This document shows, one piece after another, positions 30,931-62,224 of a stretch of 64,000 nt of DNA. Below the pieces are notes generated by a model. It did not search any database. It saw nothing but the letters and a program-made list of their open reading frames with translations, and was not told where the DNA came from. The translations under genes and the position numbers were made by a program. The DNA lies in the NCBI RefSeq assembly GCF_026210795.1, contig NC_089431.1:682001-746000 (forward strand), given 5' to 3'. How positions within the stretch are numbered: the stretch's first letter is position 1; every line of letters starts with the position of its first letter. This DNA is from Rhizophagus irregularis. Lineage: Eukaryota.

Positions 30931-30961
30931 GCTATCCTCCCCAAGGAAAATTTGAGTCCCT

Positions 30962-41120: not shown

Positions 41121-41123
41121 AAT

Positions 41124-41791: not shown

Positions 41792-44053
41792 CCATGCAGG
41801 CCCAGTATTATATATTGAATCAGCAATATGTAATAGATAATGGTAGGAAATGAGCGCTGCTGGAAGTTGTGCAGAATTATTCTGAATATATTCTCTATTA
41901 AATGTTAAATATATAATTTAATGTCAAAGTTACGGATAAATGGATATGAAAGCATACAGTACTTTTCATAATACGTGATAAATTCACAAAATAACCTTCT
42001 AATTTCTGTTAATTCTTCCATACTGATAATATGTTTAAGGCAAAGCTTTGTTGCATGTACGAATTTTGCCCATCCATTTAAATGCCTAAATAAATTTAGC
42101 AAAATCTATCTATTAAATAACATCAAAAAATAATGTGCTTTTATCACTTACAAATTAAAACATTACCTTTCTGGAAGATAGCTTTGTAAAAGTGGAAGTG
42201 AATATAATACCACCCAATTCATCCAGTCTTCTGCCTTAAATCCAGCTGAATGTTGCTGAATATTAATAGGTGGACGACCAAAATCAAATGGCATATTTTT
42301 TCGATTTTTTTCCATTGTTTTTCCTATTTCTGTCCAATCTTTATTAGGAATGATATAATTAGAATCAAAGTCTTGATCATCTTTGAAAAAAATGCCAGAC
42401 CAATGCCGAAGCATTGCTGGTGCAACATTTTCAAACAACCCATGCATAATATCAACAGGAAAAGATACAGGAAATCTAATTGAGTTTAATTCAAATAAGA
42501 TGCTGCGGCCATTTACCCCTGTAAATATAAACAAGTAAGAATTGTTTATATGAATTTGCTAAATGTATTTAAAATAAATGTACCTCGATCTTGTATTTTA
42601 CGTTTACGTGATGATCCAGATGCATTTTTTACAACAGTAACATCACGTATATAATCTTCATGTGTTCTCAGCGGAAGGTTTTCAGAATTATACTGACATC
42701 CTGACATATTCATTGGAGGTTTAAGTGGAAAATATACATGTCGATTTCCTTGACAATATATTCCACGAATAGAGCAAAATCGGCATGCTTTATATGAATT
42801 ATGTCCTGTTGTATACATTACTTTGGAAAGTGCTGGGATATCACCAGAAATACTTAAAATGTGTGCATGGAGTGTAAAGGTATTTTCTGTTAAACCATCA
42901 ATACATTGAATACCTTCTGTATTGTTATTATGAAATAAAAATTAATATATTATATTAAATACATTATAATAAAAATAAGTATGCAAAACCTTGCAACTGC
43001 TTTAATTCATCGATTAGTGGCTGTAGAAAAGAGTTAAAGTTTTTTGGTGCTTTTGGTCCTGGAATAAGTGCAGAAACCATTAAATTTTCTCGCTTAACAC
43101 GTATATTAGGTGGTAAGTTTGCATTTATAAAGAGTATAACCCAACAATCATCTCTTTTTTGACGAAAAATTTGATATCCATCAATTGATGCCATTAGAGC
43201 TATATCCCGACAGTCTGAAAAGAAACCAGATGTGGCTAAAGTTTTGTATTGAAGGCCATCAAATACATCACCTATCTGATTACCAAGAGTATATTCATAA
43301 GTAGAAGTATAATTATATCTGTAACGAAGAATTTCTGCACGAGTTTTATCTTTATATTGGGTCTGAAATGAATCAATAAGTGACCAATAAGCAGCTTTTT
43401 TTCGAGATATTTGAGATTCTTCATCAACTTTATAACGTGGCTCTTTACATTCTGGACAAATATTTTTGTTAATAAGCTCGCCTGTGAACGCCACACATGA
43501 ATTTATACAACAATCTACAAGAGTTGGTTTTAATAACATAAAATTTCCAAGAAACTTTCGAAGTTTGTAAAGTGTAATTCCAGGAATTTCAAAAACTTTA
43601 AGAATTTCGTTAAATGCAGCTTCTGAAATATTGTGTTTATCTTTAATTTGAAGAAGCTGTAAACCTTTAATTAAGTTTTCTGAATAATTATTAGAATTTA
43701 TGCAAAATTTAAAATAAATTCATAATGTTTATTTACTGTAGCCTACCAAAATCTTCACATTCAATATTTTCATTTCCTTCCCTATTATTATTATATTCTT
43801 CATCTTCATCTTCATTTTCGCCATTATTGTATTCATCAGTTTCACTATCATAAATGTGTTCTTCTTCAATATTATTATCATTCTCTTCTTCACTATCCAC
43901 TATTTCAATCTGCTGATCATTTATATTATTCTCTTCATTGCTATAATCTTGATCTTCTAGAATATTATTATTAGGTGATAATGTCATTGGAATAGTTTGA
44001 GAAATAGAAGTAGCTAGGCATCGCTGAGTAGTATGAAAATGCCGGTTCTGGCT
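41792..44053 (-). pseudogene. CACTA Tnp2-family transposase, 5' exons
   Basis: DCCINSCVAF..CPECKEPRY, ASIDGYQIF, NANLPPNIR, IPGPKAPKNFNSFLQPLIDEL, SGDIPALSK..GHNSYKACRFC, PVDIMHGLFEN, GFKAEDW and YHYLLHIADSIYNTGPAW, separated by short introns. Confidence 0.88.
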
Positions 44054-44250
44054 CACCTACTTATCTCATAATCTAACCGTTTATTAATATTTTCACCTAC
44101 TTATATGCTACATATTTTATAACCTAAATCACCTTTTTTTATATTTTTACCTACTTATATCCTACTTATCTCATAATCTAAACCGTTTATTAATATTTTC
44201 ACCTACTTATTTCATAATCTAAATCATTTATTAATATTTTCACCTACTTA
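44054..44250. repeat. About five degenerate 40-bp tandem repeats at the left end of the Polinton-like element
   Basis: CACCTACTTAT(C/T)TCATAATCTAA..GTTTATTAATATTTT recurs near 44054, 44094, 44150-44161, 44200 and 44241. Confidence 0.85.
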
Positions 44251-44431
44251 CCCCCAACCGAACAAGAAATAGGATTTCAAAGCCAACGGAGCCAAAAAAG
44301 GTAAGGAAATATTAACCCATCCAGGAAACCAGCCATAGGGTCAATAGAGCGGAATAGCAAGGCAAGCAATTACCCTTATACCGAGAAAAAATGTAATTGA
44401 ATAAAAGGTTCACATATAAAAGACTTACAAG

Positions 44432-45115
44432 ATGTCACAATACAGACCATCACTAAGACGTATACTAGGTCAGTTTGAACTCAACATAGAAGAATGGGTA
44501 AAGGAAATAATGTGGTATTTAGATATAGCATATTTAAAAGCTTTAGATTCCGAATTTAGCAAAGAAAGTATGTTAGTATCTGGATTAGAAGAGCTAGTAG
44601 AAATATTTGATGAGATGTTAGAAGGTGATGATATATGGATACATCCATCACTTTTATCACGAATAAGATATTCTATTCTACCAGATGAGATGGCAATATA
44701 TGAAAGATTTTCAGATATCATTAAGAACTTCTCAGAGGATAAAGAATTAGCATATGCATTATTAGATTTAATAGAAATATTATCAAAAAAGAAACCTACA
44801 ACATTCAACATTATAGATTACAATATACAAAGAATATTCACGAATCCTAATGATGAATATAGAAATGAATTCAGCATCTACCATATTAAAGGAGATGAAG
44901 ATATGGACGAAGACACAGATGAAGACACAGATGAAGATATAGATGAAGTAGAGCAGAATGAATTCAATGAATACTATCAGAATCTTGCACCGACCACTGA
45001 GAGTCAGCTGGATAGACTAAAAAATGAGTTGGCTATAACTCTATGTGACGAATGTCTTATACCAACAAGAAGCCAGGAATGTGATTGCTGGATTTTACAA
45101 ATAGAGGGTTTCTAG
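44432..45115 (+). CDS. Hypothetical acidic protein (227 aa) with a C-terminal Cys cluster
   Basis: Intact intronless ORF with a DEDTDED tract and CDEC...ECDC. No family recognised. Confidence 0.65.
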   Translation: MSQYRPSLRRILGQFELNIEEWVKEIMWYLDIAYLKALDSEFSKESMLVSGLEELVEIFDEMLEGDDIWIHPSLLSRIRYSILPDEMAIYERFSDIIKNFSEDKELAYALLDLIEILSKKKPTTFNIIDYNIQRIFTNPNDEYRNEFSIYHIKGDEDMDEDTDEDTDEDIDEVEQNEFNEYYQNLAPTTESQLDRLKNELAITLCDECLIPTRSQECDCWILQIEGF

Positions 45116-45134
45116 TTCCCAGTGAAACCATTTT

Positions 45135-45926
45135 TTACCTCTCACAATCTGGAATAGGTACATCACAAATAAAAACCCCAAAATCATTCGGATTAGAAAA
45201 CAACTTCTGTAAGAACTTATAAATCATATCAGCAGCCAATTCAGTCTTAGTGCCAAATATATTAACCTTACCAGATTTAGGCCAGATGTGTACCCGAATT
45301 TTTGATGTGAAGACTATAACAATTTTAGAATGAATATCACCTGCATCATTCTTAATATACTTTATCGGAAAGGGGAGAATCTCACGAATACCATCTACAG
45401 ATTCTAAAGCATATGCTAAGGTAGAAAGATGAATAAACTTATTACTTCCGATATTAATCACAAATTTGTAATTACACAGGAGAGCCTTATTTCCACCTAC
45501 AAGTTCTACAGAAGAAAACTCAGGTAGGGAACATTCAGAAAGGTAACGTAAGAAGATAGCAACAGGATCAAAAGACCCGAAAACTTGTATACTACCAGAT
45601 CTAGGAAAATAACGAATGGTATGTACAGAATCAGCTAAAATGATAACAAACTCAATGCAAGCATTAAAAGTGCTACCATCCCCTGTACGTCACCGTCTAT
45701 TTAATGGATTGTCAGGTGTACTTCTTCTGCATCGTCTCTCACCTTTTGGTTTAGACAAGTACTGTTCATAACCCTCAAAAGCTTTATGAATAAAGTTGCT
45801 ATTAATGGCAATAACATCCTTAGTAGGTTCAAGCTTATGACCAAGCACGGTGTAATCAAGCCCTTCAACATTGATCTTAAATTCAGTAACAGTAAGAGAT
45901 GGAGTAAGTTCACTAAAAGTAAGCAT
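45135..45926 (-). pseudogene. Viral TATA-binding-protein-like gene (asfarvirus B263R-like), one in-frame TGA
   Basis: ORFs 45690-45926 and 45135-45461 are one frame: IAINSNF.H..EGYE...RR*RTGDGSTFNACIEF...RYFPRSGSIQVFG...CNYKFVIN...PFPIKYIK...IWPKSGKVNIFG...IYKFL...DVPIPD. The two-fold F/W-P-x-SG-x-I/V-x-x-FG repeat is TBP-like. Total length is 263 codons plus stop. Confidence 0.8.
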
Positions 45927-46030
45927 GTCTGGTTTTTTCTATTGATAGAAAAGAAATGTTCAAATTATTTTATCCTAAGAAAAAATCTAATTAAATAAAA
46001 CTTCTTCATCAATATCTCATATGAGATACC

Positions 46031-46543
46031 ATGACAAACAATAGCTTACCTTTCGAACTTTTAGAAAAGATATTCAAAACTTCATATGAAGGTACTTACT
46101 CCCGTTGGTATTGTCTTTGCAATTATGCATTAGTGTGTCGAAAATGGGCTGTAGTAGCAAACTCTCTCCTATGGGGTGAAACAGACCTTTATAACCGCTA
46201 TAATATTAAGGAGTTCCAAATGTACAAACATCTCACAAAACCAGGGACAGTATGTGGAAAATATATCAGAAAGCTTAATATGGATGAGGTAAAATTATGG
46301 CCCATTTGTATTGTAAAAATGCTACAAGCTTGTCCCAATATCCAGGAACTTAGCATAATAGATTATCAATACTATGGTGGAAAAGGTGACGTTAGAGATT
46401 TGCTAAGTGAAATTCTGCATATATTACCAAACCTTCGAATGATAGATATCAGATATAGTCGATATTTTAAAAATAAAAATGCCATTGAAAAACTCATAGA
46501 AACCCGTAAAGACCTAGAAATCAGAGTAACATGGCAAATGTAA
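46031..46543 (+). CDS. F-box protein with short LRR-like repeats
   Basis: SLPFELLEKIF...ALVCRKWAVVANSLLW (F-box), LQACPNIQELSI and LPNLRMIDI. Intronless. Confidence 0.82.
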   Translation: MTNNSLPFELLEKIFKTSYEGTYSRWYCLCNYALVCRKWAVVANSLLWGETDLYNRYNIKEFQMYKHLTKPGTVCGKYIRKLNMDEVKLWPICIVKMLQACPNIQELSIIDYQYYGGKGDVRDLLSEILHILPNLRMIDIRYSRYFKNKNAIEKLIETRKDLEIRVTWQM

Positions 46544-46559
46544 TATTTGTAAAGGCTAA

Positions 46560-46700
46560 TCACTGCCAAAAAATTTGGGCACTGCCCTGTTACTGCCCGT
46601 CACTGCCGAAAAAATTTGGGCACTATTCTGTTACTGCCCGTCACTGCTGAAAAAATTTGGGCACTGCCCTGTCACTGCCCACCACTGCCCATCATCGCTG
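46560..46700. repeat. Three 41-bp tandem repeats between the convergent F-box and Gag-protease genes
   Basis: CACTGCC(G)AAAAAATTTGGGCACTGCCCTGTTACTGCCCGT repeated three times. Confidence 0.85.
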
Positions 46701-46790
46701 CAGAAGTTTGGGAAACACATGGATTTTTCCTAGCAAGATGACGCTTTAACTTAGAGGGAAAGTCAAAACTTGCTCCACATAGATGACAGG

Positions 46791-49700
46791 TTAATCTTCC
46801 TCGAGAGTGTGAATTTTTTTTAAGTCGATAGTATCCATCTGCAAGGAAGTCACGTTAGTTTTCCGTTTATGTAGAGAAATTGGAATGGTAATTTTTTTAC
46901 GTGATGATAGAGGGATGGTCAGTTGCCGATTTTGGAAATCTAGAATGACATTAGCACGATCAATCCAAGGTACACCTAGCAATAAAAAGTCCTTATCACT
47001 CTTAACAACCATGAAGTCATCTTCAATTTTTTTAGAGTTCTCCCCATCATATACAAGAATACCAAGACCATATACTGTCCCAATAGTATCAGATTTTGTC
47101 GCAACACCACTAAGGTTAGGAGCATTACTTCTATCAACATCAAGATTTAGGCGCTTTACAATATTGTTAGATATCAGAGAACTATCAGAACCAGTATCGA
47201 AAATTGTCGTAGGAATAACTAAAGATTTTTCACTCTCAGGTGCGACTACTTTGGTCTTAATAGTGACTACATCACTAGCAGACTTGCGGTTAACAATTCC
47301 AATACCTGCTATAGAAGACCATAAGTCATTATTACATATAACATCATCATTTTTACGGATTAAATTTGCAGCCATACTATTAGTTACAACCGAAATCATA
47401 GGATGAAGGATAGATGTGAAAAGGTCCTTAACATTATCCCAAACTTTTTCACGTGTTTTTATTGAGGGTTCTCCTTTAAGCTGACTGAGTACTGGTTCTT
47501 TATAATTAATGAATTCAGCATTCAGAGCATTGTAAGCAGATATAACAGTCTCTTTTGGTACAGCATTAACGAAGGATTGAACCAGAAGCTTGAAGAGTTG
47601 TATAAAAACCTCAAAGATAATACGCTGCCTTTCAAGTTGTGATTTTTTCTTATCAGTAGGCTTTTTATCTATACGTTTCCTTTCTGTAGGCTTTTTTTTT
47701 AATCCATAGCAGGCATGTCCAGAGTCTGAATCACTATCAGAGGAGTCAGAGGAGTCAGAGGCGTCAGAAGAGTTAGAGGAATCAGAGGAGTCATGTGCAT
47801 AATTTGTTTTCCTCTTTCCCTTCTTAGATTTTGGACAGGAACTCTTAGTATGACCAGATTTTCCACAACTTGAGCATTTCTTTGATTTCTTTGGTTTGCG
47901 TGTACCTGAACTTATACCAAATACCTGATTACCACGGTAAATATGATCAGATGGTAAATTTTTATTAAGTTCTGTATCAATAAATATTTCAAGATCACTA
48001 AGGGTTACTTTACTTATATCGATATCTCTTGGAAGACCTAATTTATATGCTAAAGCAAGTAATCTCTGAAATGATGTATCATTTTGAGGACTTGAAAATG
48101 GACTAGAAGATGGTACTGGTACTGCAGATGATCTAGCTGTAGTCATAGGAATTTTAGAATTTATAAGATTCTCAATATCCGCTAAAGTTGGACCCTGATA
48201 TGTAACTATAGGAGTAGGTGGCATATCTGTCCTGTATTTTTCAACTTCTTCCAATTTATTCAGAATAGATGCAACTGAATTTTCTAAACCAATACGTCGC
48301 GCATCCAACTTATTTTCACTGGAAAGACCATTTAAGAACTGTTGCCATACTAATTCATTCTGATTTACCTCTGGAAGAGTTGGATATGCAAGTCTAACCA
48401 TTCTTCGTAATTTAGAATAGAATCGGCTTACAGTATCACTACCCTGAACAATAGCATTAAATGCAAGCTTAGACTTTTCAGATGTTACAGTAGGGAAGTA
48501 ATGCTTAAAACGATATATTAATTGTCCAATGCGTATTCCAGGAGCCACAATTGTACCTCCATTATTAGCATTAGGATTATTAACAGCTATATCAGTAGGA
48601 CGACCCTCGACTATTGACCAATCTTCATCCCATACAGTATGATCAGGTATAAAACTAGCACCAGTAATAGTATTAACTGCAGCTGCTTGTCCATGTAATA
48701 CACCAGCCCCTCCACGAAATTGATTCGCCGCTACAGCCTGTATAGCGGCATTATTCAAAGCATTAAAAGCAGCAAGATTGGCCACACCAGTATTATCCAG
48801 AAGATTTACACATTCCCAATTTTTTCCTTTGATATGTGTTTCATACCAATCTCTAGCATCATCTTCAAGTAAAGTTTCAAAGATCCCATGAATCCTAACA
48901 CGAGTCCTAGCATTAGCAGCAGGATCAAGTCCAGCAGACTCACACCATTGCCTGAATTCTTGAAGCCAAAGTTCTGGATCTTCACCAGATGCTCCTCTAA
49001 ATTTTTTAGGTGCATATCCTGCCATTATAGGTTGTTGTATTACCGGAGGGTTATTTTGTAATGCTAGAATCTGTTGATTCAAATTATTGACCTGATTTTG
49101 CAAATTTTGGCCATGATTGCGACAGTTTAAAAATTGCCCTCTCCATGCTCGAGCTTGCTGAATGATACCATTAGCCCGCCTTCTACTTCGCTCTGTTTCA
49201 GTATTATAGCGCTGTAATAATCTATGAGCATTTCTTCTACTCTCATCACGTTCTCTCTGGACATTAGCTAGTTGGATTTGACTGTTAGCAAATTGAGCCT
49301 GGATGTTAGCCAATTGGATCTGAGTATTTTGTGTAAGGGCTTCCCAATGTTGGCGATGACGCACTTCATTTGCATATGCATCCTCATAAGTACGTCTTGT
49401 TCTCAGTATAGTAGCACGTGTATTATTAAGTTCTTGTCTAAGATATTCTTCACGGTTATGTGCATCATCTAACAAACCTTCAAGTCTATCCTCCATATTA
49501 TCTTGATCTTCTATAATATTTCGCAACTCATTAGCATATCGGATAATGGCATCAAGACTATCATTTGCAGTGTTAAATAAATGATTTATATGAGGGTTTG
49601 CTGCAATAGTTGTACGATCAAGGTGAATACGAATACCAGCTACACTATTTGCTATAGTTGTCCGATTATTTAAGATTTCTGTAATAGGGTCAGGAGGAAT

Positions 49701-50012
49701 TGCTGCCATGTTTTTCCGTTGTCTATTAGCAAGTTCTTTTATTCGATCTTTAAGTTGAATATTTAGAGTATCAACTTCAATCAGCTGACGTTCTAATGCT
49801 TGAAGCCCTTCCTCCTTTAGTGATGCCGTTTCTAATGCTTTCTTAAGCTTTGCACGCAACTCAGCATTTTTTTGCCTAAGTTCTTCTATCTCGGATTCAT
49901 GACCCTCGATTACACCATACAGGTATTTTATATATTGCTCTTGTGATTGCAATGTATGTGCAAGCTTTGTAATCTGTGTCTTTAACGATGTATCTTCCAT
50001 TGCCAGTTCCAC
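46791..50012 (-). CDS. Gag-like polyprotein: coiled coil, Ty3/Gypsy-type capsid, CCHC knuckle and retropepsin; no RT
   Basis: PKKFRGASGEDPELWLQEF...LLEDDARDWY, IVQGSDTVSRFYSKL...QFLNGL, CSSCGKSGHTKSSC and IFDTGSDSSLIS...LLLGVPWI. Intact 1073-aa ORF with the first ATG at 50000. Confidence 0.88.
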   Translation of the reverse strand: MELAMEDTSLKTQITKLAHTLQSQEQYIKYLYGVIEGHESEIEELRQKNAELRAKLKKALETASLKEEGLQALERQLIEVDTLNIQLKDRIKELANRQRKNMAAIPPDPITEILNNRTTIANSVAGIRIHLDRTTIAANPHINHLFNTANDSLDAIIRYANELRNIIEDQDNMEDRLEGLLDDAHNREEYLRQELNNTRATILRTRRTYEDAYANEVRHRQHWEALTQNTQIQLANIQAQFANSQIQLANVQRERDESRRNAHRLLQRYNTETERSRRRANGIIQQARAWRGQFLNCRNHGQNLQNQVNNLNQQILALQNNPPVIQQPIMAGYAPKKFRGASGEDPELWLQEFRQWCESAGLDPAANARTRVRIHGIFETLLEDDARDWYETHIKGKNWECVNLLDNTGVANLAAFNALNNAAIQAVAANQFRGGAGVLHGQAAAVNTITGASFIPDHTVWDEDWSIVEGRPTDIAVNNPNANNGGTIVAPGIRIGQLIYRFKHYFPTVTSEKSKLAFNAIVQGSDTVSRFYSKLRRMVRLAYPTLPEVNQNELVWQQFLNGLSSENKLDARRIGLENSVASILNKLEEVEKYRTDMPPTPIVTYQGPTLADIENLINSKIPMTTARSSAVPVPSSSPFSSPQNDTSFQRLLALAYKLGLPRDIDISKVTLSDLEIFIDTELNKNLPSDHIYRGNQVFGISSGTRKPKKSKKCSSCGKSGHTKSSCPKSKKGKRKTNYAHDSSDSSNSSDASDSSDSSDSDSDSGHACYGLKKKPTERKRIDKKPTDKKKSQLERQRIIFEVFIQLFKLLVQSFVNAVPKETVISAYNALNAEFINYKEPVLSQLKGEPSIKTREKVWDNVKDLFTSILHPMISVVTNSMAANLIRKNDDVICNNDLWSSIAGIGIVNRKSASDVVTIKTKVVAPESEKSLVIPTTIFDTGSDSSLISNNIVKRLNLDVDRSNAPNLSGVATKSDTIGTVYGLGILVYDGENSKKIEDDFMVVKSDKDFLLLGVPWIDRANVILDFQNRQLTIPLSSRKKITIPISLHKRKTNVTSLQMDTIDLKKIHTLEED

Positions 50013-51046
50013 AGATTTTTATAGACCCTACATTTAATAAACAAATCGAACAAAATTATATCCTTCAACAAATCTATTACCATCCATGTGGATATTATCG
50101 TATTCCTGAAAAACTTTGGGCTAAAGTGCAAGCTGAGGGCCATGATTTTAACATATCTGATATTACAGAGTGGTTGCATAAACAGGCTATATGGCAAATA
50201 CACTCACCTGTACCCAAGTATGTTCCACAGGTTTCTTTTAATAAGATCACACGACCAAATATGTATCATCAAGCGGATATCTTATATATGCCCTATGATA
50301 CTGTAGATAGAAAGCTGTATAAATACTGTTTGAATATTGTAGATGTTGCCAGCCGATATAAAGCTTCAGTACCTCTAGAAGATCGCAGCTCTGCACGTGT
50401 TGCTAAGGCATTTAAAAAGATTTATAGTAAAGCAGACTGCCCGCTTATTTGGCCAAGAGTTTTACAAGTAGATGGGGGATCAGAATTTAAGGATGAAGTT
50501 ATCCGATTAATGGATGAAAAAGGTGTACGTATTCGGGTGGGTACTACTCATAAGAGTCAGGCTATTGTTGAACGGTATAATCGAACTTTAGCAGAAAGGC
50601 TATTTAAAATACAGGATGCAAAAGAACTCCTTACAGAAGGTGTGAATACTGCCTGGGTTAAGAACCTTCCTGATATTGTGAATGAGTTAAACAATTCTAA
50701 TACTCGATTGCTGGGTATGTCTCCAGTTGAGGCAATCCAGAAAGATCAAGTGTATGCACTACCTTCAAAGATTCAGAATGATAGACCTGTAGGTGCAGAA
50801 GAAATACGTTTACCGGCAGATTCTCTTGTGAGATACTTACTTGATAGCTCAGATTACCGAGGTAGGAGACGTGCAACTGATCCAATATGGTCTACTAAAG
50901 TTTATACAATTGAATCTTCCACAGTTGTTGATGGGCAGCCGGTTATATATAGGTTATCTGATGAACCTAAAAAAATATTTACTCGAGAAGAATTATTAGT
51001 TGTGCCATCTGATACTATGCTGCCTCCTACTCATATATTATATTAA
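49988..51046 (+). CDS. rve-family DDE integrase of the Polinton/adintovirus type
   Basis: QIYYHPCGY, HQADILYM, NIVDVASRY, LQVDGGSEF, QAIVERYNRTL and RRRATDPIWS. No HHCC or GPY motif as in the Gypsy integrase. Confidence 0.88.
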   Translation: MYLPLPVPQIFIDPTFNKQIEQNYILQQIYYHPCGYYRIPEKLWAKVQAEGHDFNISDITEWLHKQAIWQIHSPVPKYVPQVSFNKITRPNMYHQADILYMPYDTVDRKLYKYCLNIVDVASRYKASVPLEDRSSARVAKAFKKIYSKADCPLIWPRVLQVDGGSEFKDEVIRLMDEKGVRIRVGTTHKSQAIVERYNRTLAERLFKIQDAKELLTEGVNTAWVKNLPDIVNELNNSNTRLLGMSPVEAIQKDQVYALPSKIQNDRPVGAEEIRLPADSLVRYLLDSSDYRGRRRATDPIWSTKVYTIESSTVVDGQPVIYRLSDEPKKIFTREELLVVPSDTMLPPTHILY

Positions 51047-53502
51047 TTTTCAAGTTGTGGTATCCTATAGTCACCATGTGCATACATTGTGATATTATCT
51101 TGTGCAATCCATTTTTTATCATCCATAGGAGATAACCCAACCTTCGACATTTCTATAACATTTATGGCATGTCTGTCAGATCGGATTGCTCTAAAGGTAA
51201 CTGTATCATTATGTTTAGGATCGAAGAGTGCCTTATTATACCGCTCGTGGTGGAATTCTTTTTTAACTACCTTTGAGGGAACACCCTTAGCCTTACGGAT
51301 ACCATGTTTTGGATTAGTAGTTTCATCTCCTACCTTAAGAATGGAATACATTTTGGGACGAAGGCCAATAAATTCTGCTATAACTGCTCCATTACATTCA
51401 TCCTTAAATTTTCCTGGGATTTTCATGTTTATGTCAGCCTTGTCACCTAATGCTTCTCGTACAGGGTGATCCTTAGGATAATCACTAAAGTCGAATTGGT
51501 CTGCCATATCTATAAGGTCTGCATTAATATCCTCAGTTTGGATTTGTACGAGGAGTGAGTCTGTGTCTGTATAACATAACTGGATTTTTTCACCATAACG
51601 TACCTTAAGAGTATCATAGTAGAATTGATACATACAGAGCTTTGAGAGGTCAAGTACACTCATACCCACATATGTTGGACGGTTAAGCATTACCTCCACT
51701 TTTCGTCGGTGGATTGCAACAAGATTTTCTGAGAATATTTTACGACCTTTGAATGCAGGATCTGAGGTAAGCTTTTTATATTTCTTGGGATGGGTTTGGG
51801 GTTGTACTACTGAGACACGTACACGTTTCCTGAGATTTTCCATAGTTTTACCAAATACACTATTATTCATGAGTTTATAGAAGTCCTTCTCAAAATCGTT
51901 TTTAGCCTTAGCACGTTCGGCGGTGTTAAATTCTATGTATGGTTTCATCCATGGAGCCTGCTCGAATTTTATAGCTTCATAGACCTTCTTGATTACTAAG
52001 CCTTGGCTAACATAATACTGGAGATTTCTGTAATGAACTACATATTCATCCTTATCGAATAGGTTGGGAATGAGCTTATCCGTGGGTGTGTATCGTTGTC
52101 CTGAGCGTGCTATTATTTCCTGCTGCTTTTTACTAAGCCATTCCTTCTTAACCTTCATTCGTTCTGGTGCAAGGGGGTAATCTGTATGTTGTGAATGAAG
52201 AGCTTGGGGGTACTCCAGTTTGACTTTGAGAATATATCCCTCAGAAGAATCGTCTGGTATTTCGTTATTTTCTATTTGCCTTTGAATGTTAGATAACTCG
52301 TTCTCCTCCTTTACCCAGTGAAAGTTACCTGTAGGTAAGTATTGCAACATGGCCCATCCATATAGGTTATTTGCATCTAAGTATAGGATAGATAACTTGG
52401 GCTTTTCTGCGGTCCATTTACCTTCTCCCATATCTGGGTTATTTGCACGAGCATATCGTTTACTTACCATAGAGATTCCACCACGTAATCCTTGTTCTAC
52501 CATCATGTACATATCCTGGTCAGTTATAAGATCCAATCTTCGCCCTGTCATGAAGAATAGTGCATCCCATGCAAAGCCTGGTGTTGAATAATACCAGAGA
52601 GGATCTAACCCATATTTTTTCAAGGCCATTTCTCGGAAATTCTGAAATATATCGGCTAGTAGAAGGACGTCAGTTTTGAGATAAATGTCATGATAATCTT
52701 GCATTGTTTTACATCCTGCTTTTTCCCATACATACTGTGCATATTCGTATTCTTTATCACTAATGTGGGTTTCATTAAGTTTGCTATAGAATGCTCCTTT
52801 AAGTGGTAAACTAGTTTTCTCGAACTTTTTCCAGTCATCCATATATTCATACGGGTAGACACCTTTCTTAAGATAAATCTCGAGTAATTCAGGTGGTATT
52901 TGACTTCGTGTTATCTTAAAGTTTTCGGGATGTGCAAAGCATCTACCTGCATCAATTCGCCATAAGTGTTGTGGATTACTACATTCTTGTGCTCTACATT
53001 TTTCTGCGCCTAGGTTGGATGCTAATTTGTCGAGACTTGATTTCATGAATTGTAGGCTGTCTATAAATCAGAGGGAACCTAACTTGAATGCCATATACTT
53101 TTCCATGTTATAAGGGATAGGATCAATATCATCCTCACATTCCATTGCACCAATTCCTTGCATAATTATGTGTCCATCATATCCTGATAAATTGTGAAAG
53201 ATTACTGGGATATGCATTTCACGAGGTTTTATGGATAAGTCAAGATTACATCTTCTATGTGCTGCACCTCGATACCTTCCTGTAATATGGCAGTGGTCTC
53301 TTACTTTATTTCCATCTAAGGGGTTGCGACATATCCAGCAGTTTATTGCATTATCATAACTTACTTGCTCTTGGGTTGTTAATGGCATCATTTCCATTGG
53401 GTTTCTGAATTCATTACGGATTGCTTCAGCCTCATTTAGCATTTCGATTACAAATTTCTGTGCTGCATTTTCTCCTGTAAATATCTTCTGTGATTCACTT
53501 AC
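51043..53502 (-). pseudogene. polB: Family B DNA polymerase of the Polinton (protein-primed) type, 5'-truncated, one in-frame TGA
   Basis: CWIC..KVRDHCHITGRYRGAAH..CN, FHNLSGYDGH, L*FIDSLQFM (TGA at 53070-53068), KGVYPYEY, YLKTDVLLL, YLDANNLYGWAM, KLMNNSVFGK, YTDTDS and KAKGV. Confidence 0.92.
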
Positions 53503-54310
53503 CACACGTCAAATAAGTAAAAATCAGTCAAATATCGGACTGCCGATTTTTGGCTGTATTTGTCCGATTCATGGCTTTATTCAGCCGATTTTATGGCGTG
53601 AATTGCTAAAAATAGAAATTCCTCTTTTTAATGACAAAAAATAGGAATGCCGCATTTTAAACCATCATGCCGATTCAAACAATAATCGGACTGCCGATTT
53701 GTAAATAAATTTACAAAATATCATCACAATCAGACTGCCGGCATGAAAATAAACATGCTGATTCATAACATATAGAAGTGCCGATTTTTAAATCAGAACA
53801 ACAAACATTTTATATTACCTGCCGATTCTTCAATAATCTTCCAAATCGGACTGCCTATTGTACCGATTCGTATAATAATTTTTCAAAAAATAAGTGCCGA
53901 TTTATAAATTGGCACAACAGACTTATACTACCATGCAGATTCATGCAGTAATCATCCAAAATCGTACTGCAATAATCATGCCATTCTCACAAATAGAAAT
54001 GCCGATATATAGATCAGTAAGAACAATACTTAAAATAACATATGCCTGTTTTTATTTCGATCACAAATAGTTTTGAAAAGGAATGCCGATTCATAGATCG
54101 GTAAGAGCAATACTTAAAATAACATATGCCTGTTTTTATTTCGATCACAAATAGTTTTGAATAGAAATGCCGATTCATAGATCAGTAAGAACAATACTTA
54201 AAATAACATATGCCTGTTTTTATTTCGATCACAAATAGTTTTGAATAGAAATGCCGATTCATAGATCAGTAAGAGCAATACTTAAAATAATCTATGCCTG
54301 TTTTTATTTC
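53503..54310. mobile_element. Terminus and subterminal repeats of a CACTA/CMC-like element inserted in polB
   Basis: Starts CACACGTCAAAT exactly where polB homology stops. Many short (C)TGCCGATT repeats, then four 85-bp tandem units at about 53990-54310. Confidence 0.75.
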
Positions 54311-54539
54311 GAGTAAGCCAGAATCTTTCTATTTTTGATTTTTTCGTAATTCATCATTACCCGTTTTTTTCTATTATTGACCGATTTTATTTTATATGAA
54401 CACATTGTAATATACGTTTTTTTATTTTGCAGTTTATGATATATTTATTATTATATTCTTGCTATATTTATTATTACTATGTGCTATAATCATCTTACTA
54501 TTTTCTTTCACTTTTTAAAAGAGAACGTTTTTTAGTAGT

Positions 54540-56732
54540 TGATCTCCTAATAATTTCTTTTGGAACCACTAGTCGAAATGGATCATCCTTTTCATCGCTG
54601 TCATCGATAAAAATATAATCATTATTATCGGTTTTCTTATTGTCATCATTCTTATCGTCATCATTCTTATCGTTATTATCATCGTTAACGTTATTGTCGT
54701 TTTTATCGTTACTAGCATTGTTTTTATCTTTGTCGTTATTGTCGTCATTGTTATCGTCATTGTTATCGTCGTTACTATTATCCTCTTCATCACCATCTTT
54801 GTCGGATTCTTGTGCAACCCAGCTTGACGAAATCCACCAACTGGGAATGTTCTCCTTTGGTTTGCTTTTTTTGTCAAAATTTTCATCTGAGCGGTAACGT
54901 GGACGACTTAAACCAGATCCGATGCTAATACCAATTTCTTCCGATCGATGTAGAATTTTTTGAATCTAATAAAAATTTATAATTTATTAAGCATAAATGT
55001 TATATTCATTAATAACATCACGACTTCGCATACTCCCGACGACCGCCACTTCTTGTCGTAAATCTTTATTACTGAATTATTGTTAATTAATCGACCTGAT
55101 CTTGTATTTTTACTGCGTTCTTTGTTTGCTAATTCCTCGTCTTCTGTGGACCATTCGTCCGAGTGTATGTCTGAAGTATTAGTCGCCTTTATACAATCTT
55201 TGATAAATTCTTCCCATTTTAAGTTACGATGTTGGCATTCAGTCAAAAGTTTGTCTCGTGTCGATATCATGTGCTGCAATCCTCTTCTGCGCCGGGACAT
55301 CTTCTATTGAAGAGTAAATTAAAAAATTAATTAATTGTATATGTTTTTATTATTAAATAATGAATTTTATACCTGATCCCTTCTGGATATCATGTGTTGT
55401 CTTTTGGTATGTTCCGGCATTTTACCCTCTTTTTTGCAGTTTCCAAATCTCTCGGCGAGATTTATGCAATTGTTTTATGATTCTTACTATCTCTATATCA
55501 TATGCTACAATAGAAGGATTCATGGCCGATTTTACTGCTGGCAAAAGTTTTCTTTCTATTGTTTTTTTTGTTCACTGTACGTCTTTGATAGGTCGAATTG
55601 AAGCGACTGATTAAGATTATTGAGAATATGGACTACTTCATCCTATTTAATAAAACAGTCATTAAATGATCAAATATTTAATTTAATAAAGATAAATTTT
55701 AATAAAAATGTATATTTACGTGAAGTGTCTTCTTATAATTACTTGACATGAGTGGCAGCTCACGTTTCTGTTCTCTAATAAGAATAGGCGATAAGCTTCT
55801 ATTGGGACGATTAACTAAAGGTTCTTCATGACTAGCATTTTTTTCGGTTAGGTTATTTAAGCGTTGTGTGAGATTTAAGATTACATTTCTTAATTCTTGA
55901 ATTTCTTGGTTTTCAACGCCACCTATTATAAGTCAGTATTTAATATAATTCATTTTGAAAATTTTTTTTTTACATGTAAGTCAGAATAGGAGCGTGAGGG
56001 AAATAATACCGCTATTTAGAGCCGGAGTAATTGAAGAGGAAGGTTGATTTTGCAATATCGAAGATTGATTTGTAAGTGTTCCTATAATAATTATGTTAAA
56101 TCGGTATATGTTTTGAAATGTAATTAAAACTAATTTAAATAATATTACTTTTTGTTAATGATCTCCCTCTATTTTGTGGTGATGAATCTTTGGATGAGAG
56201 AGTGGTAAATTGATCATTAGAATCAGATACTTCATAATAGGATCGATGATGGTTAGAACTGTGGGATCTAGATTGTGATTTATGTGATCGATGATGTTGA
56301 CGTGAACGGATAGGGGAACTAGAATGGGATGGAGAGATATGTTGTTGTCGTAATCGGTGACTACGAGATTGGGAACGACTATGACTACGACTACGAGATT
56401 GGGAACGACTACGACTACGAGATTGGGAATAACTACGACTACGAGATTGGGAATGACTACGACTACGAGGTTGGGAACGATAATGGGAACGACGTGAATG
56501 AGAACGACGATGTGAACGACGTGAGTGAGAACGACGTGAGTGGGATCGTTGATGAGAACGACGTGAGTGAGAACGACGATGGGAACGACGTGAATGGGAT
56601 CGTTGATGAGAACGACGTGAGTGAGAACGACGATGGGAACAACGTGAATGGGATCGTTGATGAGAACGATGTGAGTGAAGAACGGGAATCTGATTCTTTT
56701 TGTTGAGATCTAGTATTGAGGTTCCTATGCAT
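54540..56732 (-). pseudogene. Multi-exon transposon accessory gene: Ser/Arg/His-rich N-terminus, conserved core, Asp/Asn-rich tail; frameshifted
   Basis: Core MNPSIVAYDIEIVRIIKQLHKSRREIW...QHMISRRDQ and GLQHMI...SDIHSDEWS.EDE is paralogous to 62225-64000. SHSRR and SRSQSR repeats at about 56340-56690. Confidence 0.65.
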
Positions 56733-57049
56733 CCCGAGAAATTTGTAAAAATTTAAATCTTTTCATTATGGTATTTATTATTAAAGATCGGACAAGAGAT
56801 AAAAAGGCACTTTATATACATATTTTGAATCATCCTATCATTTAACGCGTAATTGCCTAATCAAAATAAACATAAAATAAATTATTAACTTCGTTATCAC
56901 ATATCAATAAATTTATACTACATCGCTATCCATCAATTAAATATATTAATAATCAATTAATATCATTAAACTTAATTAAATTAATTACTTACGGAAGTTT
57001 GTTTTTCCGGTAGGAAATCTGTGACGCGACGAAATAGCGATACGTGACG

Positions 57050-57215
57050 AAAAAGCAATAGGAAATATTTTTGAAACCGTGATGTGAACGCAAAAAGCGA
57101 TAGAAAATATTTTCGAAACTGTGATGTGAACGAAAAGAGAGAGGAAATATTTTCGAACTGTGATGTGAACGAAAAGAGAGAAATATTTCGAACTGTGATG
57201 TGAACGAAAAAAAGC
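57050..57215. repeat. Four 34-37 bp tandem repeats
   Basis: GAAATATTTTCGAA(A)CTGTGATGTGAACGAAAA repeated; possibly subterminal repeats of a nested element. Confidence 0.75.
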
Positions 57216-57992
57216 GATATAAATATCGTCGAAGAAAGCGTGGTAAACATACACAAATATATCATGATCGGCACCTCCGATTTTGTAGGATTTATGCATC
57301 TGGCGCGTGACACTTATGCGTCATCCAGTCACGTGTAGTAACAAACTGCGCCCAAGGCAGAAAATTAGTACTTATTGGGCAATAAAAGAATAACTTTTTA
57401 TACTTTTATACGTGATTTTGATATTTTGATTAAAAATAACTCAATCAATTAATTTTTAATAAAAAATAATATAAAATCTTTCAACTAGATAACATACAAA
57501 ATCGCCAAAATTTTTTTTTTTCATTCTTTATGAAACTTGATTAAAAAAACAGCGCATAAATTTAACCACTAATAACATCGTTGATGTAATAAAGTTCTGA
57601 GTTCCATTCTGCCTGCGTACATGAATAACATCTACAGGGAGATGTTCCCCATGTCGATAGGGAGGATGATCCCCATACTAGACTGACTTTTTGTTTAAAT
57701 TATAGTTCATATGTATTACTACTAAAATGATAGATGCAAGTTTATCACGATCATTCGGCGCTGATGGACAAATCGTTCGTTGAGATACTTGTTACATGCA
57801 GTATGATGATTAATTACTATTAGATTTATACAAAATTTATGACATTTTAAATCGATTTTAAAGGTATTAATATTATCTTATCTTATATTATGAAAAAGAA
57901 GCTGGTTTAATAGCCAAAAAAAAACATCATATTTACAAAATATAAAGGAATTTTCAAATTAAAAAATGAAAAAATGAAATATAATTGATTAA

Positions 57993-58398
57993 TCATGACT
58001 TGTGAAATTTGAAGTATTCTGATAAGCTGCTAAATGTAGGTGATTGCGATTGTTGTTGCGATTGTTGTTGCGATTGTTGTTGCGGCTGCGTTTGTTGATG
58101 TTGTTGCGAAAAATATAATCGTAAATTTAAATCATAAATTTCTTTTTCATAGTCTTTTATTTTTTCGTCGTATATTTTTAACCACTCCACCAAATTATTG
58201 TTTTCACGGGAACTTTTCTCCAACTTATTAAGTAATTTCTCTCCCGAATCGTACACAACTTTTTTAAAGTCCAGCAACTGGACTTGCAAATCGGAAACTT
58301 CCTTATCCTACCCCTTTAATTCCTTTAGCATTCGCTCTCTTCTATTTTTTTTTGCGATTTCGCGAGGATTTGCGAGAATTCAACGATGGTTTGCCCAT
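57993..58398 (-). pseudogene. Small basic-region/coiled-coil (bZIP-like) ORF with a Gln-rich tail and one in-frame TAG
   Basis: MGKPSLNSRKSSRNRKKNRRERMLKELKG*DKEVSDLQVQLLDFK...QQQSQQQSQ. Confidence 0.5.
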
Positions 58399-58797
58399 TT
58401 TTGCGAAAATAATCTTTCTGGCTAATCTCGGAATTTATAATTCGATGAATAAAGCATGTATTATTGCTAAAAATGGCTAATAACATTCATTATGCTATAT
58501 TTTAGGGGGTGGGAGAGGCGCAAAAGTGCCTGTCAGGTGGTATTTTCCAATCATATATATATAAATTGGTTAAAATCCTGAAAGATTTTGAGTAAATATT
58601 TGTAATATTATAATTAATACAAATTAAAAAAATGTGGCTGATTGTTTCACTTTAATAAGTATCTAGCGGCTTTTTGTGAATCAGAAATTAACCTTTAATA
58701 TTAATTCAGGATCTCAAAAAATTTCCTAGATAAAAAAATTTTTCAAAAAAATTTCCTATATAAAAAAAAATTTTCAAAAAATTTTCTAGATAAAAAA

Positions 58798-61700
58798 ATG
58801 TCTAACCCTCGAGCTGTTGCCAAATCTAATAGAACAAGAATAAGAACTAAAGTATACTGCTTTTGTAAAGAATGTAATGGCAAGTTAGTGGACCCAAGAA
58901 CGAAAACTAAACATGGGTTAAAATATAATATATCTTATGCGAATAATAATTTTAGTAACAATTATCAAGAAGCTGAGCCTTCTAATGCTAATCCATCTAA
59001 TAATTTTGGTGATGATTATCGAGAGGCTGGGCCTTCTGATGTTGGACAATATACTGACGATAATAATGCAATGGAATGCGAACCTTTACTCGAGATGATA
59101 CCTATACATGAATCGGCAAAACATAAATTCACAAAGAAAGGGAAAATATCTGATCACGTTCTTGAAAATTTATTACCGGATAACGGAAGAGATATGAATG
59201 ATGATCAAGATAGAGATTTTGAAGACTATGACGACGAAAATAGAGATTCTGAAAGTTTTGAAGATGATGACGAAGATGGTGTTTCTAGCGATTTTAAAGA
59301 TGATGACGAAGACAGTAATTTTGGAGATTTTGAAAGCGATGAAGAATATAGAGACTCTGAAGATTTTGAAGATGATGATGAGGAAGAAGTCAATTTTGCG
59401 TCAAAAGATTTTGACGATGGTGAACCAAAACTTCCTAATATCAACAATGATAATTATACCTGGATTATCTTATGGATATTACAATATCAACAAAGATATA
59501 AGCTTCCTAATGTTTCAATAGATTCTTTATTTAAATTTCTAAGGTTTTTTCTTTTAACGGTAGATGAAAATAAATTTTCATCTTTTCCTTCCTCCCTGTA
59601 CGTAGCCAAAAAAATATTGGGAATATCAATGAATATTATCAAATATGCCGCATGTAATAAATGTCACAAATTGTATGACATAAATGAAATATCAAACACA
59701 ACCGAAGTACCAACATGTAGTTTTATAAACTACCCGAATCATAGCATAGAAAGATTTCGACAAAAATGTAATAACCCTCTAGTCAAAAAAATAGACAGTA
59801 ATAAAGATGGTGGAAATAATCCAATTATCCGTCTGATAATGACATTTCCATTAGTTAACATTAGGCGCCAACTAACCCTATTTTTCAGTCGCAAAGATTT
59901 TGAGGTGACATGTCGAAAGTGGGCAGAAAGGGAAAACGAAACTGAAGCCTTATTTGACATTTATGATGGGAGGATTTGGATGAGTTTTGAAGATGGCAAA
60001 GGAGAACCATTCTTCAAAAAAGAATACGCCGAAACTCATATCGGATTAATGCTAAACATGGATTGGTTTCAACCCTATATAAATTCCCAATATTCTGTCG
60101 GTGTAATATATGCCGTTATTTGTAACTTACCCCGAAGCGAACGTTTCAAGCCCTACAATATTCTCACACTAGCAGTTATACCCGGTCCTAAAGAGCCAAA
60201 GAAACATGAAATCAACAATTACTTATACCCCATCATAAATCAGCTGAATCGGTTATGGGAAGGGTATCATATAAAAACCTACGAATATAACAACGGTCGT
60301 TTTATCCGTGGCGCGATAATAGGTTGTGCTAGTGACGTTCCTGCGACTCGAAAATTATGTGGTTTTATATCAGCTCGAATCGCATGTTATCGATGCTATA
60401 AATCAGCAAACTTGGTAAATAATCAACCCAATTTTGGTGGGTTTGAAGACATTGACGACTGGTTTGTTGAGAGAGATATTAATTTAATAAGGGAGAAGGC
60501 ACGTGAATGGAAGAAATGTGCAACCGAAGAATCGCGTAAGGCTCATGTCTCACAGTATCATGTTCGTTGGTCGGAAGTATACCAATTACCTTATTTTAAT
60601 TCTGTGCGCTTTTGCGTAGTTGATCCCATGCACTGCCTCTTTCTCGGGGTAGCAAAGTGGATTGTAATGAAGCTCTGGATCGACGAAGGTATATTAAATA
60701 ATGAAAAGCTCAAAATAATGCAAGAGCGAGCCGACTTGATAAAATTTCCAAGTGACCTCGGTCGCCGTCCCGTTAGAATAGCCACTGGCGACGGCTTTTC
60801 AAATTTTACGGCGGACATGTGGAAGACGTTTGTTCTAATTTTTGCAATACCTATCACATGGAATCTCTTGGGAGAGATCGATCGAAAAATTCTTGCTTAT
60901 TTCGTACGTTCCTGTAAAATTTTAACAAATCGGGAACTACAAAAAAGTGATCTAAACGAAGCATTTACAAAACTACTCGAAATGAATAAATTAATTGAAA
61001 AAAAATACGGACAAAAAAAAATAAGCCCAAATCTTCATTTATGCCTTCACATATGTGAATGCGCTTTAGATTATGGACCTTTATCCTCATTTTGGTGTTT
61101 TAGCTTCGAACGAATGAACGGAATTCTAGGTATGATATATTAATTTCGCCGATTTGAAAATCGTATTGTTTTTTTTAATTTATACAGATTGACCAATTTA
61201 TTTCTTAAGAACATAGGATCGTATAAAAATAGCAAACGTAACATTGAACCAGAGCTATTAAAAATAATGGTTGAAAGTTCCTTTTTAAACTATTACCTCA
61301 CAAATTGCGATAGCAATATATTAAACACCACTTTGGACATTATAAAGCCTAGAAAATCTGCAGGAAGCTTGGCTGCACTTGACGATTTTACAAGTGATGA
61401 GTATCAAAATTTTCTGAGGCTTTCACTTATCGAAAATGAATCGGCTTATGGAACAGAACGTTTTCCCGGGTTGTTAATGAAACCGCGCCAAGAAACATGT
61501 CTTCCAAACCGCGTCTTGGACTTACTGGTTGAGTTTTATAATAGTTTGTATGAAGAACATTTCGTCCCCATTTATTCTATAACGGGTCCAAATAACGATA
61601 TTGTTGTAATTTCCAAAATTATACAATACGGTAGAATAAGAATTGGGGCGGATATATTTGGTTCCATTCAGGCAGCTCGTCATGAGAAATCATCATACAT

Positions 61701-62061
61701 ATTAGCTCGTTTTGAGCAGGAAGATGGAACTATAGACACATACCCCGGTCAAGTTCAATTTTATTTTGAACATACTATTTATTTAAAAAATTCATCATCA
61801 TTAACTCATTCGCTAGCACTAGTTAAATGGTACAGGCCGGCCCAAGATCATAGGACAAGATATTTTTGTCAAGTAGACGATGACATAAAATCATGTAATA
61901 TAGAATTATGGACAAATGGGTTTTATGATATGAGTCGAGATAGTATTATACCGGTACATCATATATTAGGAAAATTTATAAAATGTGATTTTAATATTGG
62001 AACGAGAAAGATAAAAGAATATATGGCCATGATTCCTTTAAATAAAAAAATTTCATTTTAA
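58798..62061 (+). CDS. CACTA/EnSpm Tnp2-family transposase, apparently intact, 2 exons
   Basis: DIYDGRIW, LMLNMDWFQP, ICNLPRSER, IPGPKEP, ASDVPATRKLCGF, VVDPMHCLFLG and PNLHLCLHI..DYGPLSSFWCFSFERMNG. The intron 61130-61216 (GTATGA...ATAG) joins the two ORFs in frame. Confidence 0.93.
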
Positions 62062-62224
62062 AAAACAAATGAATCTTATATAAAATTGTTTATATGTAAA
62101 TCGGAATGACGAATTTGAATTATATAACATTTGTATTTGATTAAATTATAACTAATTTTTTTTATTAAAGGATATATCATATTTTTATTATATTATTATT
62201 ATATTATTGTTACATATATTATAT

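Follow-up and report, generated by a model that had tools for sequence, protein, structure and literature searches.

Can a mobile element that encodes its own DNA polymerase and integrase, and next to them a Gag-protease polyprotein, do without both reverse transcriptase (RT) and the usual virion genes? The question is raised by positions 44027-53502 of the window, the whole 64,000-nt stretch of Rhizophagus irregularis DNA analysed here. The definition of Polintons/Mavericks includes a 5-6 bp target-site duplication, and their terminal inverted repeats (TIRs) start with AG. To our knowledge, Gag capsids occur in reverse-transcribing elements and in genes domesticated from them, and Polintons are regarded as jelly-roll viruses or as having lost the virion. 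With moderate confidence, we propose that the block represents a widespread Polinton/Maverick family of Glomeromycota, the root-symbiotic fungi, that carries a family B DNA polymerase (polB), an integrase and Gag-protease between TIRs, lacks RT and jelly-roll genes, and likely uses Gag particles for the lost virion.

Structure of the damaged copy

The block is a damaged Polinton/Maverick copy. An earlier note on this DNA described a compact group of six genes (ORF227, a TBP-like gene, F-box, Gag-protease, integrase and polB), and all six were found at the positions it gave, in agreement with ORF positions and Pfam matches. Its left end at 44054 had to be moved to 44027, 27 nt further out, where contig junctions from read runs place it. 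The left TIR (44027..44409, + strand) is imperfect and begins 5'-AGTAG. In runs X5 and X11, contigs follow the flank up to 44026 and then continue into an empty site, and one X11 contig has another flank attached at 44027. One X3 contig matches 44027-44057 and 44256-44381 with differing letters in between, and we read it as the probable other TIR of the element. Contigs diverge from the window at 44404/44409, the inner edge of the left TIR. Termini of the TG..CA type were ruled out as element ends by the junction at 44027 (5'-AGTAG). The TIR contains three degenerate 41-nt subterminal tandem repeats (44056..44242, family D18), and three 41-nt tandem repeats of family D17 lie between the F-box and Gag stop codons (46568..46690).

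On the right, a CACTA-like insertion (53503..64000, with Transposase_21 at 58798-61143), itself outside the element, interrupts polB, and the right end lies beyond the window, as the earlier note had recognised. In other copies the sequence continues past 53502 (loose ends at 53502/53503). The empty site, the second flank and many contigs reveal multiple copies of this TIR-bounded unit, dispersed over different insertion sites. The window is rich in nested insertions, among them a true gypsy element at 30242-41791. The window copy is damaged, since TBP (45690-45692) and polB (53068-53070) contain in-frame stops where other copies read through; judged by its reading frames, it is dead for both genes.

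The rve integrase (49988..51046, + strand; 352 aa, open) matched PF00665 above the cut-off (E 3e-9), carries the DDE residues D97/D162/E195, and overlaps gag head-to-head by 13 nt. It shares only 25% identity over 105 aa with the integrase of the window gypsy element. Our integrase tree had 52 rows, with five near-identical loci omitted; its outgroups were long-branched and the root unsure, so the order of events was not drawn.

The polymerase gene (51043..53502, - strand) encodes residues equivalent to 473-1315 of the full-length 1317-aa polB from a metagenome contig (L007), to which it is 74% identical; ~470 N-terminal residues are cut off by the insertion at 53503. We located its putative polB and exonuclease motifs. 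These, together with one weak PF03175 match among six polB family members (E 0.0015), suggest the Polinton class. No polB match was found in PDB sequences, phages or NCBIfam, and endonuclease VII was the sole match among PHROGs.

Three smaller genes occupy the left part. ORF227 (44432..45115, + strand), an acidic orphan protein whose C-terminus bears a Cys cluster, matched no protein family and is 39% identical to an ORF of L009, one of the two contigs of a sister element described below; its place beside the TIR is conserved there. The viral-type TATA-binding-protein (TBP) homologue (45135..45926, - strand; 263 codons) is identical to the intact P0429 at 248 of 263 positions. It was unrecognised by sequence search and identified by fold alone: the intact homologue from L009, modelled with AlphaFold (pLDDT 86), has TBPs as PDB matches (E 3e-7), and the nearest named viral fold is an asfa-like B263R homologue (TMq 0.71). 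The F-box protein (46031..46543, + strand) matched PF12937 (E 1.5e-6) and is 38% identical to its L009 homologue.

The Gag-protease polyprotein

The Gag-protease frame (46791..50000, - strand) is open, as the earlier note had stated, and encodes 1069 aa from the first ATG, or 1075 stop to stop, rather than the 1073 aa given there. An N-terminal helical region of ~320 aa is followed by the capsid (CA) domain, a single CCHC knuckle (residues 709-722), a Ser/Asp tract, an A9 run and retropepsin. The retropepsin DTG motif at D935 is conserved among relatives, and the Pfam aspartic protease match had E 0.004 in the window, 2e-4 in L009 and 1e-7 in the relative P0083. Gag, with its CA, knuckle and protease, is under purifying selection (dN/dS 0.14-0.38 by region; CA 0.23, protease region 0.14).

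The CA domain (48216..49022, - strand) was predicted to consist of N- and C-lobes with an insertion of ~100 aa between them (pLDDT 86). In VIA-align, ranks 1-36 were all retroviral, retrotransposon or domesticated CA chains, including the PEG10 CTD (Z 10.3, rmsd 2.4, 85 aligned) and HERV-K Gag (Z 10.3, rmsd 5.5, 163 aligned). Foldseek gave a best E of 5.5e-3, with zero matches at ≤1e-3. The model thus predicts that Gag folds like retroviral CA; the Foldseek E-value is weak and Z ≈ 10 modest for a helical protein, but the matches are uniform. RT was found in none of 33 long CA relatives, nor was the Gag donor found among 216 CA relatives, which come without genomic context. Many of the 216 end in a Lys run resembling the first slippery site.

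This first site, the A9 run (47692..47700, - strand), lies between the nucleocapsid and protease regions. The frame is continuous across it in the window and L008, shifts to -1 in L010, L030, L043 and L064, and to +1 in L007 and L009, so that part of the pattern reflects A-run length variation or assembly error. Behind the protease, a C2H2-like zinc-finger frame missed by the earlier note opens in the -1 frame (46672..46854, - strand; zf-C2H2 E 2e-4); it is common to the window, L007, L009, L010 and L040, and frameshifting at the A8 run 46814-46821 likely appends it to the polyprotein. RNA structure downstream of the slippery sites was no stronger than chance (z -2.0 to +0.8). The -1 frame that follows the protease in L020 encodes zinc finger plus integrase, and in P0083 protease, zinc finger and integrase are fused in a single ORF. 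This is how retroelements bring integrase into Gag particles.

Of the features of an LTR retrotransposon, Gag with CA and zinc knuckle and the aspartic protease are present, and RT/RNase H and long direct repeats are absent. No ORF of at least 70 aa in 44027-53502 matched an RT family, and neither RNase H nor an LTR pair was found there; RT was also absent from all 66 loci, in a search that detected the RT of the window gypsy element (E 4e-42) as positive control. Self-comparison of the block gave short tandem repeats only, and in the gypsy element next to it the same procedure recovered both LTRs. Profile search and self-comparison thus concur with the earlier note, which saw gag without RT, RNase H or LTRs.

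The predicted capsid fold also enters a different reading, which we regard as quite improbable: that Arc-like Gag particles carry element mRNAs or proteins between the nuclei of the coenocytic hyphae, leaving the DNA genome unpackaged. In its favour, CA resembles the shells of Arc, PEG10 and PNMA, RNA is the usual ligand of CCHC knuckles, and a Gag shell would be small for 11-12 kb of DNA. Nevertheless, with genes on both strands, no one RNA stands for the whole genome, and copies already resident in a target nucleus would be the main beneficiaries of enzymes shipped without a genome.

Recurrence of the arrangement and the missing virion genes

The same gene order is found again in soil metagenomes. 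A single contig holds gag, integrase and convergent polB in 11 of the 65 loci there (integrase identity 57-97%), which argues that the arrangement is not due to chance. Gag stands head-to-head with integrase in 36 of the 46 informative loci (those with at least 300 nt upstream); the loci are not independent, L005-L010 being one family. The remaining ten, including L011, L014 and L048 with close integrases (60-68%), have no head-to-head gag, indicating that relatives lacking gag persist. In a second clade, a small ORF instead of polB follows the integrase in 13 of 28 loci. Gag and integrase similarity co-varied over 23 elements (Spearman 0.72; none of 2000 permutations as high). In R. irregularis assemblies we found at least seven gag/INT or gag/TBP pairs with accession numbers within 3 of each other, most of them on listed contigs equal in length, and public contigs (X3 record 14) bridge gag, integrase and polB. 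In two runs recorded as RNA, only 8-11% of words were contained.

Gag in this Polinton is therefore confirmed as a family trait and not a nested accident. The earlier note had named three observations that would speak against its reading: other copies without gag, a gag left by a deleted LTR element, and a complete standard capsid module with gag in this copy only. Instead, other copies carry gag, LTR remnants are absent, the position of gag is kept in relatives, and the sister element described below leaves no room for such a module. That gag is the remnant of a deleted LTR retrotransposon inside this Polinton copy might be expected in a window full of nested insertions, including gypsy at 30242-41791. 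The probability of this is negligible: self-comparison shows no LTRs, gag keeps the same position in relatives down to 38-48% integrase identity, it is under purifying selection, and it is only remotely like the window gypsy gag (17.5 bits). The metagenome loci, the sister element and the gag position in relatives refute it.

The loci without gag bear on another explanation, to us an unlikely one, in which Gag is an accessory weapon or scaffold and the element moves as a naked DNA transposon. Gag would then poison resident Ty3/gypsy capsids or, as a condensate, shield replication from RNAi. L011 and L014 do have integrase and polB but no adjacent gag, the element has further accessory genes (F-box, TBP), and domesticated CA domains serve as restriction factors, with Drt2 among the CA structure matches. 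However, the protease site, knuckle and frameshift layout are conserved, and a dominant-negative CA would need none of these. Moreover, the protease-zinc finger-integrase fusion links Gag processing to the element's own integrase.

A complete sister element was obtained from metagenome contigs L009 and L007, which overlap over 6010 nt at 99.9%. It spans 11,249 nt and ends in a perfect 99-nt inverted repeat. The outer ends of this repeat may be incomplete. Long TIRs were found at the 44027 end, which starts 5'-AG, in the second repeat form and in the 99-nt repeat. The longest stretch outside named ORFs is 348 nt, leaving no room for a double jelly-roll (DJR) capsid or ATPase gene. A search for DJR, A32 and adenain families, as the earlier note had suggested, found none among ORFs of at least 70 aa in the window block and the TIR-bounded sister element. 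The DJR capsid typical of Polintoviricetes is absent from the sister element, where the beta-rich ORF is TBP. An A32/FtsK packaging ATPase is absent from both; the ATPase search detected Pox_A32 in L031 (E 3e-12) as positive control. Penton and adenain/Ulp1 protease gave no Pfam match in a search without positive control. The earlier note spoke of a virion module "swapped or supplemented"; as a standard capsid module would not fit into the sister element, "swapped" fits better and "supplemented" less well. On balance, we favour replacement of the virion module by Gag plus retropepsin.

The element might alternatively be a non-autonomous virus using a jelly-roll virion supplied in trans by a related Polinton or giant virus, with Gag secondary. 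A second-clade integrase sits behind the A32 ATPase in L031, P_Gi1.2 is listed with an ATPase (PMC4028283), A32 genes are reported from Glomus/Rhizophagus in passages of 10.64898/2026.06.19.733378, and TBP is of giant-virus type. Nevertheless, this is very improbable: no MCP is reported for G. intraradices in passages of PMC7805220, and four viral_contigs scans, with gag, the CA alignment, the polB alignment and the L031 ATPase, gave no relative. Of two integrase scans, the one with a single integrase gave nothing and the one with the integrase alignment retrieved one remote locus, L066.

Known systems and the proposed role of Gag

Polinton-1_GI (Maverick Gi1.1) of Glomus intraradices (= Rhizophagus irregularis) has the same host as the window element and is listed at 11,954 bp (PMC4028283), compared to ~11.4 kb estimated for the window family. 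It has been listed since 2014 as without capsid, with MCP, penton, ATPase and protease all missing in the rows of PMC4028283. According to passages of PMC7805220, the MCP of the Glomus Polinton was not yet found, and the element is cited there as an example of capsid loss. Neither those rows nor those passages mention gag. The window element probably belongs to the Polinton-1_GI family, as matched by description and not by sequence.

The window TBP is 94% identical to DAC81703.1. The DAC prefix is presumably that of third-party annotation, the record kind deposited by Starrett et al. The Fig. 5 legend of Starrett et al. 2021, "MELD viruses (and related elements)", names TBP and Gag/retropepsin (PMC8502044), so the element layout has probably been drawn before, and we infer that the window element matches the one in that figure. 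Section 3.4 of the same paper does not discuss a Gag-bearing element, and "gag" occurs once in the main text (PMC8502044). Beyond this legend, we found no text describing a Gag-bearing Polinton in the passages of the literature searched. The element and, probably, its Gag label are thus already in print.

Animal Polintons/adintoviruses (Polintoviricetes) share the pPolB-like polymerase, rve integrase and TIRs with the window element, which, in contrast, has no DJR capsid or A32 ATPase and no recognised penton or adenain, and has Gag-retropepsin, TBP and F-box instead. With Ty3/gypsy (Metaviridae) and Pol-less Gag-protease elements it shares the CA fold, CCHC knuckle, retropepsin and inter-frame slippery sites. 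Unlike Ty3/gypsy, it lacks RT, RNase H and LTRs, has TIRs and its own DNA polymerase, and its integrase is not of gypsy type. Bidnaviridae, in which a Polinton polymerase is joined to the capsid of another virus realm, are a precedent for such joining across realms; unlike the window element, they lack an integrase, and their capsid, a single jelly roll, derives from parvoviruses. This family is mentioned in PMC11161782.

We give an even chance to the fuller proposal that old, diverse Glomeromycota "Gag-Polintons", as a separate lineage of integrating elements that replicate from DNA to DNA, pack DNA genome, integrase and polymerase into retropepsin-matured Gag capsids. As in Polinton biology, the polymerase would copy a linear form of the element from the TIR ends, filling the place held by RT in a retrotransposon, and the integrase would insert it. 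As happens in retroelements, slippage at the two conserved A-runs may determine how much Gag, Gag-Pro and Gag-Pro-zinc finger is made relative to one another. Gag would co-assemble with integrase and polymerase around the nucleic acid of the element, most probably linear DNA or a single-stranded panhandle, and we propose that a packaging ATPase would then be unnecessary. Retropepsin would mature the shell in the role of adenain, the viral TBP may drive element transcription, and the F-box protein may degrade host factors.

Our data indicate that a whole morphogenetic module, capsid plus maturation protease, was replaced by that of another virus realm. If true, the element would be a cross-realm chimera whose Gag capsid never depends on reverse transcription, and a Gag shell loading ~11 kb of DNA, if real, would deserve attention as a delivery particle. 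The expansion of Mavericks in Glomerales (PMC11952901) and their recent activity in R. irregularis (PMC8647823) make the idea testable in a cultured model fungus. The Gag-Polinton reading, if true, would also account for the "missing capsid" of the Glomus Polinton.

Gene block and termini of the window copy

All six genes attributed to the block by the earlier note were found, in the order ORF227 (+), TBP-like gene (−), F-box gene (+), Gag-protease (−), integrase (+) and polB (−), the last convergent to the integrase. The Gag polyprotein was intact, as had been claimed, with an open frame of 1069 aa rather than 1073 aa. The integrase (352 aa) was also open, and its start overlapped that of gag by 13 nt. 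The TBP and polB frames were each interrupted by a single in-frame stop, at a position that is open in other copies. A CACTA-like insertion truncated polB at 53502; contigs of three runs continued polB past this point, so the truncation is specific to the window copy. A conserved polB motif (51863-51894) was the sole stretch common to contigs of three runs that diverged beyond it, pointing to a putative further polB family in the same samples. The nearest named relatives of the window Gag were Rhizophagus irregularis proteins (97-98% identity, 66-member cluster).

Contigs of two runs matched the left flank up to 44026 and then continued as an empty site, whereas another contig joined 44027 to a different flank. 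Because both break there, the element starts at 44027 with AGTAG, and not at 44054 as first proposed. AGTAG-like termini are known for Polintons. A second repeat form shared 44027-44057 and 44256-44381 with the window left end, and contigs departed from the window sequence at 44404-44409, which together indicate an imperfect TIR of ~380 nt. Contigs covered the entire block (~44.1 kb to 53.5 kb), with single contigs spanning gag-integrase-polB.

The neighbouring element (30242-41791) is a separate Ty3/gypsy LTR retrotransposon, its LTR pair 96.8% alike. A P-loop domain resembling thymidylate/nucleoside kinases (32294-33100, minus strand) is fused to its RT-RNase H, and its Gag is extended N-terminally by an acidic stretch of 600 aa. 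Nested Transposase_21 (CACTA-like) elements occupied ~26700-44026 and 53503-64000, and one of them appears to host both the Polinton and the gypsy insertion. The stretches 54638-55735 and 62302-63417 were 64% alike. We also observed a 172-nt tandem array (15727-18093), its inverted relative at ~23 kb (23009-23459) and a 252-nt hairpin (27240-27761) with arms 95% complementary.

Relatives and the complete sister element

Scanning metagenomes with the integrase alignment gave 65 partly non-independent loci, and 66 with the viral locus L066. Of the gene order that the earlier note had proposed to trace in other copies, gag, integrase and convergent polB recurred on a single contig at 11 of the 65. 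A head-to-head gag-family ORF was present at 36 of the 46 loci with at least 300 nt upstream (L066 counted); four of these 36 had served as queries, and those also match the window Gag. Of 28 loci with at least 300 nt downstream of the integrase, 13 had polB in convergent orientation, 13 had a small orphan ORF and 2 had neither of these. In R. irregularis assemblies, gag/integrase or gag/TBP accession numbers were at most 3 apart in at least seven pairs, and the CA family reached R. clarus, Entrophospora and Paraglomus.

That gag might be the remnant of a nested LTR element is extremely improbable. None of the 66 loci matched RT, and no LTR pair was found within the block by a self-comparison that did pick up the pair of the adjacent gypsy retrotransposon; the earlier claims of no RT and no LTR flanking gag were borne out.

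The overlapping contigs L009 and L007 (6010 nt, 99.9%) jointly cover 11,249 nt, bounded by a perfect 99-nt inverted repeat that also terminates locus L005. This sister element has the gene content and order of the window block, and its complete polB (1317 aa) begins ~200 nt from the right repeat. Gaps outside the named ORFs were at most 348 nt, too short to accommodate a jelly-roll capsid gene or one for a packaging ATPase; Pfam, which does detect the A32 ATPase of locus L031, matched neither in the sister element. The sister element shows no counterpart of the jelly-roll genes that, according to the earlier note, could still exist in the right part displaced out of the window. We regard a jelly-roll virion supplied in trans as very unlikely. 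The beta-rich gene is a TBP and was rejected as a jelly-roll candidate on its predicted fold: the PDB matches of the model were TBPs, and the closest named viral fold was an asfarvirus-like B263R homologue.

A second clade (L021-L047 with the R. irregularis protein P0096; 100/100 support, 24 rows of the integrase tree) had gag head-to-head and, on the other side of the integrase, a small orphan ORF that is conserved; in its member L021 the plus strand encoded a different polB. The L031 integrase nests within this gag-bearing clade, with an A32-type packaging ATPase immediately ahead of it (L031:622-1554). L031 is possibly of the P_Gi1.2 type, listed with an ATPase in the available part of PMC4028283.

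Gag conservation and slippery runs

The gag gene is real and maintained. The CA model (pLDDT 86) matched exclusively retroviral, retrotransposon or domesticated capsid chains at VIA-align ranks 1-36, including the PEG10 CTD (Z 10.3, rmsd 2.4, 85 aligned) and HERV-K Gag (Z 10.3, rmsd 5.5, 163 aligned). Foldseek agreed, yet with E 5.5e-3 at best. The Gag knuckle was invariant across the alignment, and all rows extending to the protease had the DTG/DSG motif. Against L009, dN/dS was lowest in the protease region (0.14), followed by CA (0.23) and the N-terminus (0.32). Gag and integrase similarities covaried (r 0.72, 23 elements), which indicates long joint inheritance and not function, because relatedness alone yields it.

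An A8 run (46814-46821) closes the protease, with the frame 0 stop shortly beyond. Past it, the −1 frame encodes a zinc finger in the window, L007, L009, L010 and L040, and in L020 the −1 frame past the protease runs on into the integrase. At the A-run between nucleocapsid and protease (site 1), the window and L008 stay in frame, L007/L009 are +1, and L010, L030, L043 and L064 are −1. From these frames we infer that slippage at the gag A-runs may be programmed; homopolymer error accounts for part of the site 1 pattern, and no stimulatory RNA structure stood out behind the slippery sites. L020 (1-1235) and the protein P0083 represent a lineage with protease, C2H2 zinc finger and Polinton-type integrase co-linear or fused, in P0083 within a single ORF. 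The layout resembles retrotransposon Pol, but without RT.

Earlier descriptions and proposed packaging

DAC81703.1 is a TBP 94% identical to that of the window, with an accession prefix that we take to denote third-party annotation. A window-type element seems to be drawn in Fig. 5 of Starrett et al. (PMC8502044), whose legend names TBP as well as Gag/retropepsin, undiscussed in the accessible text. Polinton-1_GI (P_Gi1.1, 11,954 bp) is listed without MCP, penton, ATPase or protease in the available part of PMC4028283; given our size estimate of ~11.4 kb, the window family is probably this element. PMC7805220, in the part available, states that G. intraradices had so far yielded no MCP. Fungal or Glomerales Mavericks or Polintons are mentioned in general, without gag, in the portions available of PMC11952901, PMC8647823, PMC11296320, PMC11161782, PMC5751038 and 10.64898/2026.06.19.733378; PMC3671162 gave no match. 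We found no paper describing a Gag-Polinton chimera, which subscription papers or supplements might contain.

In the general Polinton model, replication from the TIRs is followed by integration. Apart from a polB of tentative class, the element shows the Polinton transposon features tested; neither the capsid and ATPase of polintoviruses nor the RT and LTRs of LTR elements were found. The most likely reading, held with moderate confidence, is that DNA is copied into DNA starting at the TIRs and that integration proceeds as in other Polintons, with Gag and retropepsin jointly substituting for capsid, ATPase and adenain. No ATPase would be needed, since Gag is proposed to assemble around its cargo, and the integrase fusion of one lineage may offer a route into the particle. 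Particles loading only RNA or protein seem rather unlikely. Against replacement by Gag stand the relatives L011, L014 and L048, with closely related integrases and other small ORFs where gag would be; an accessory role of Gag, in defence or as a scaffold, is a less likely, though still credible, alternative. Overall, the element appears Polinton-like in replication and integration and is probably retrotransposon-like in packaging.
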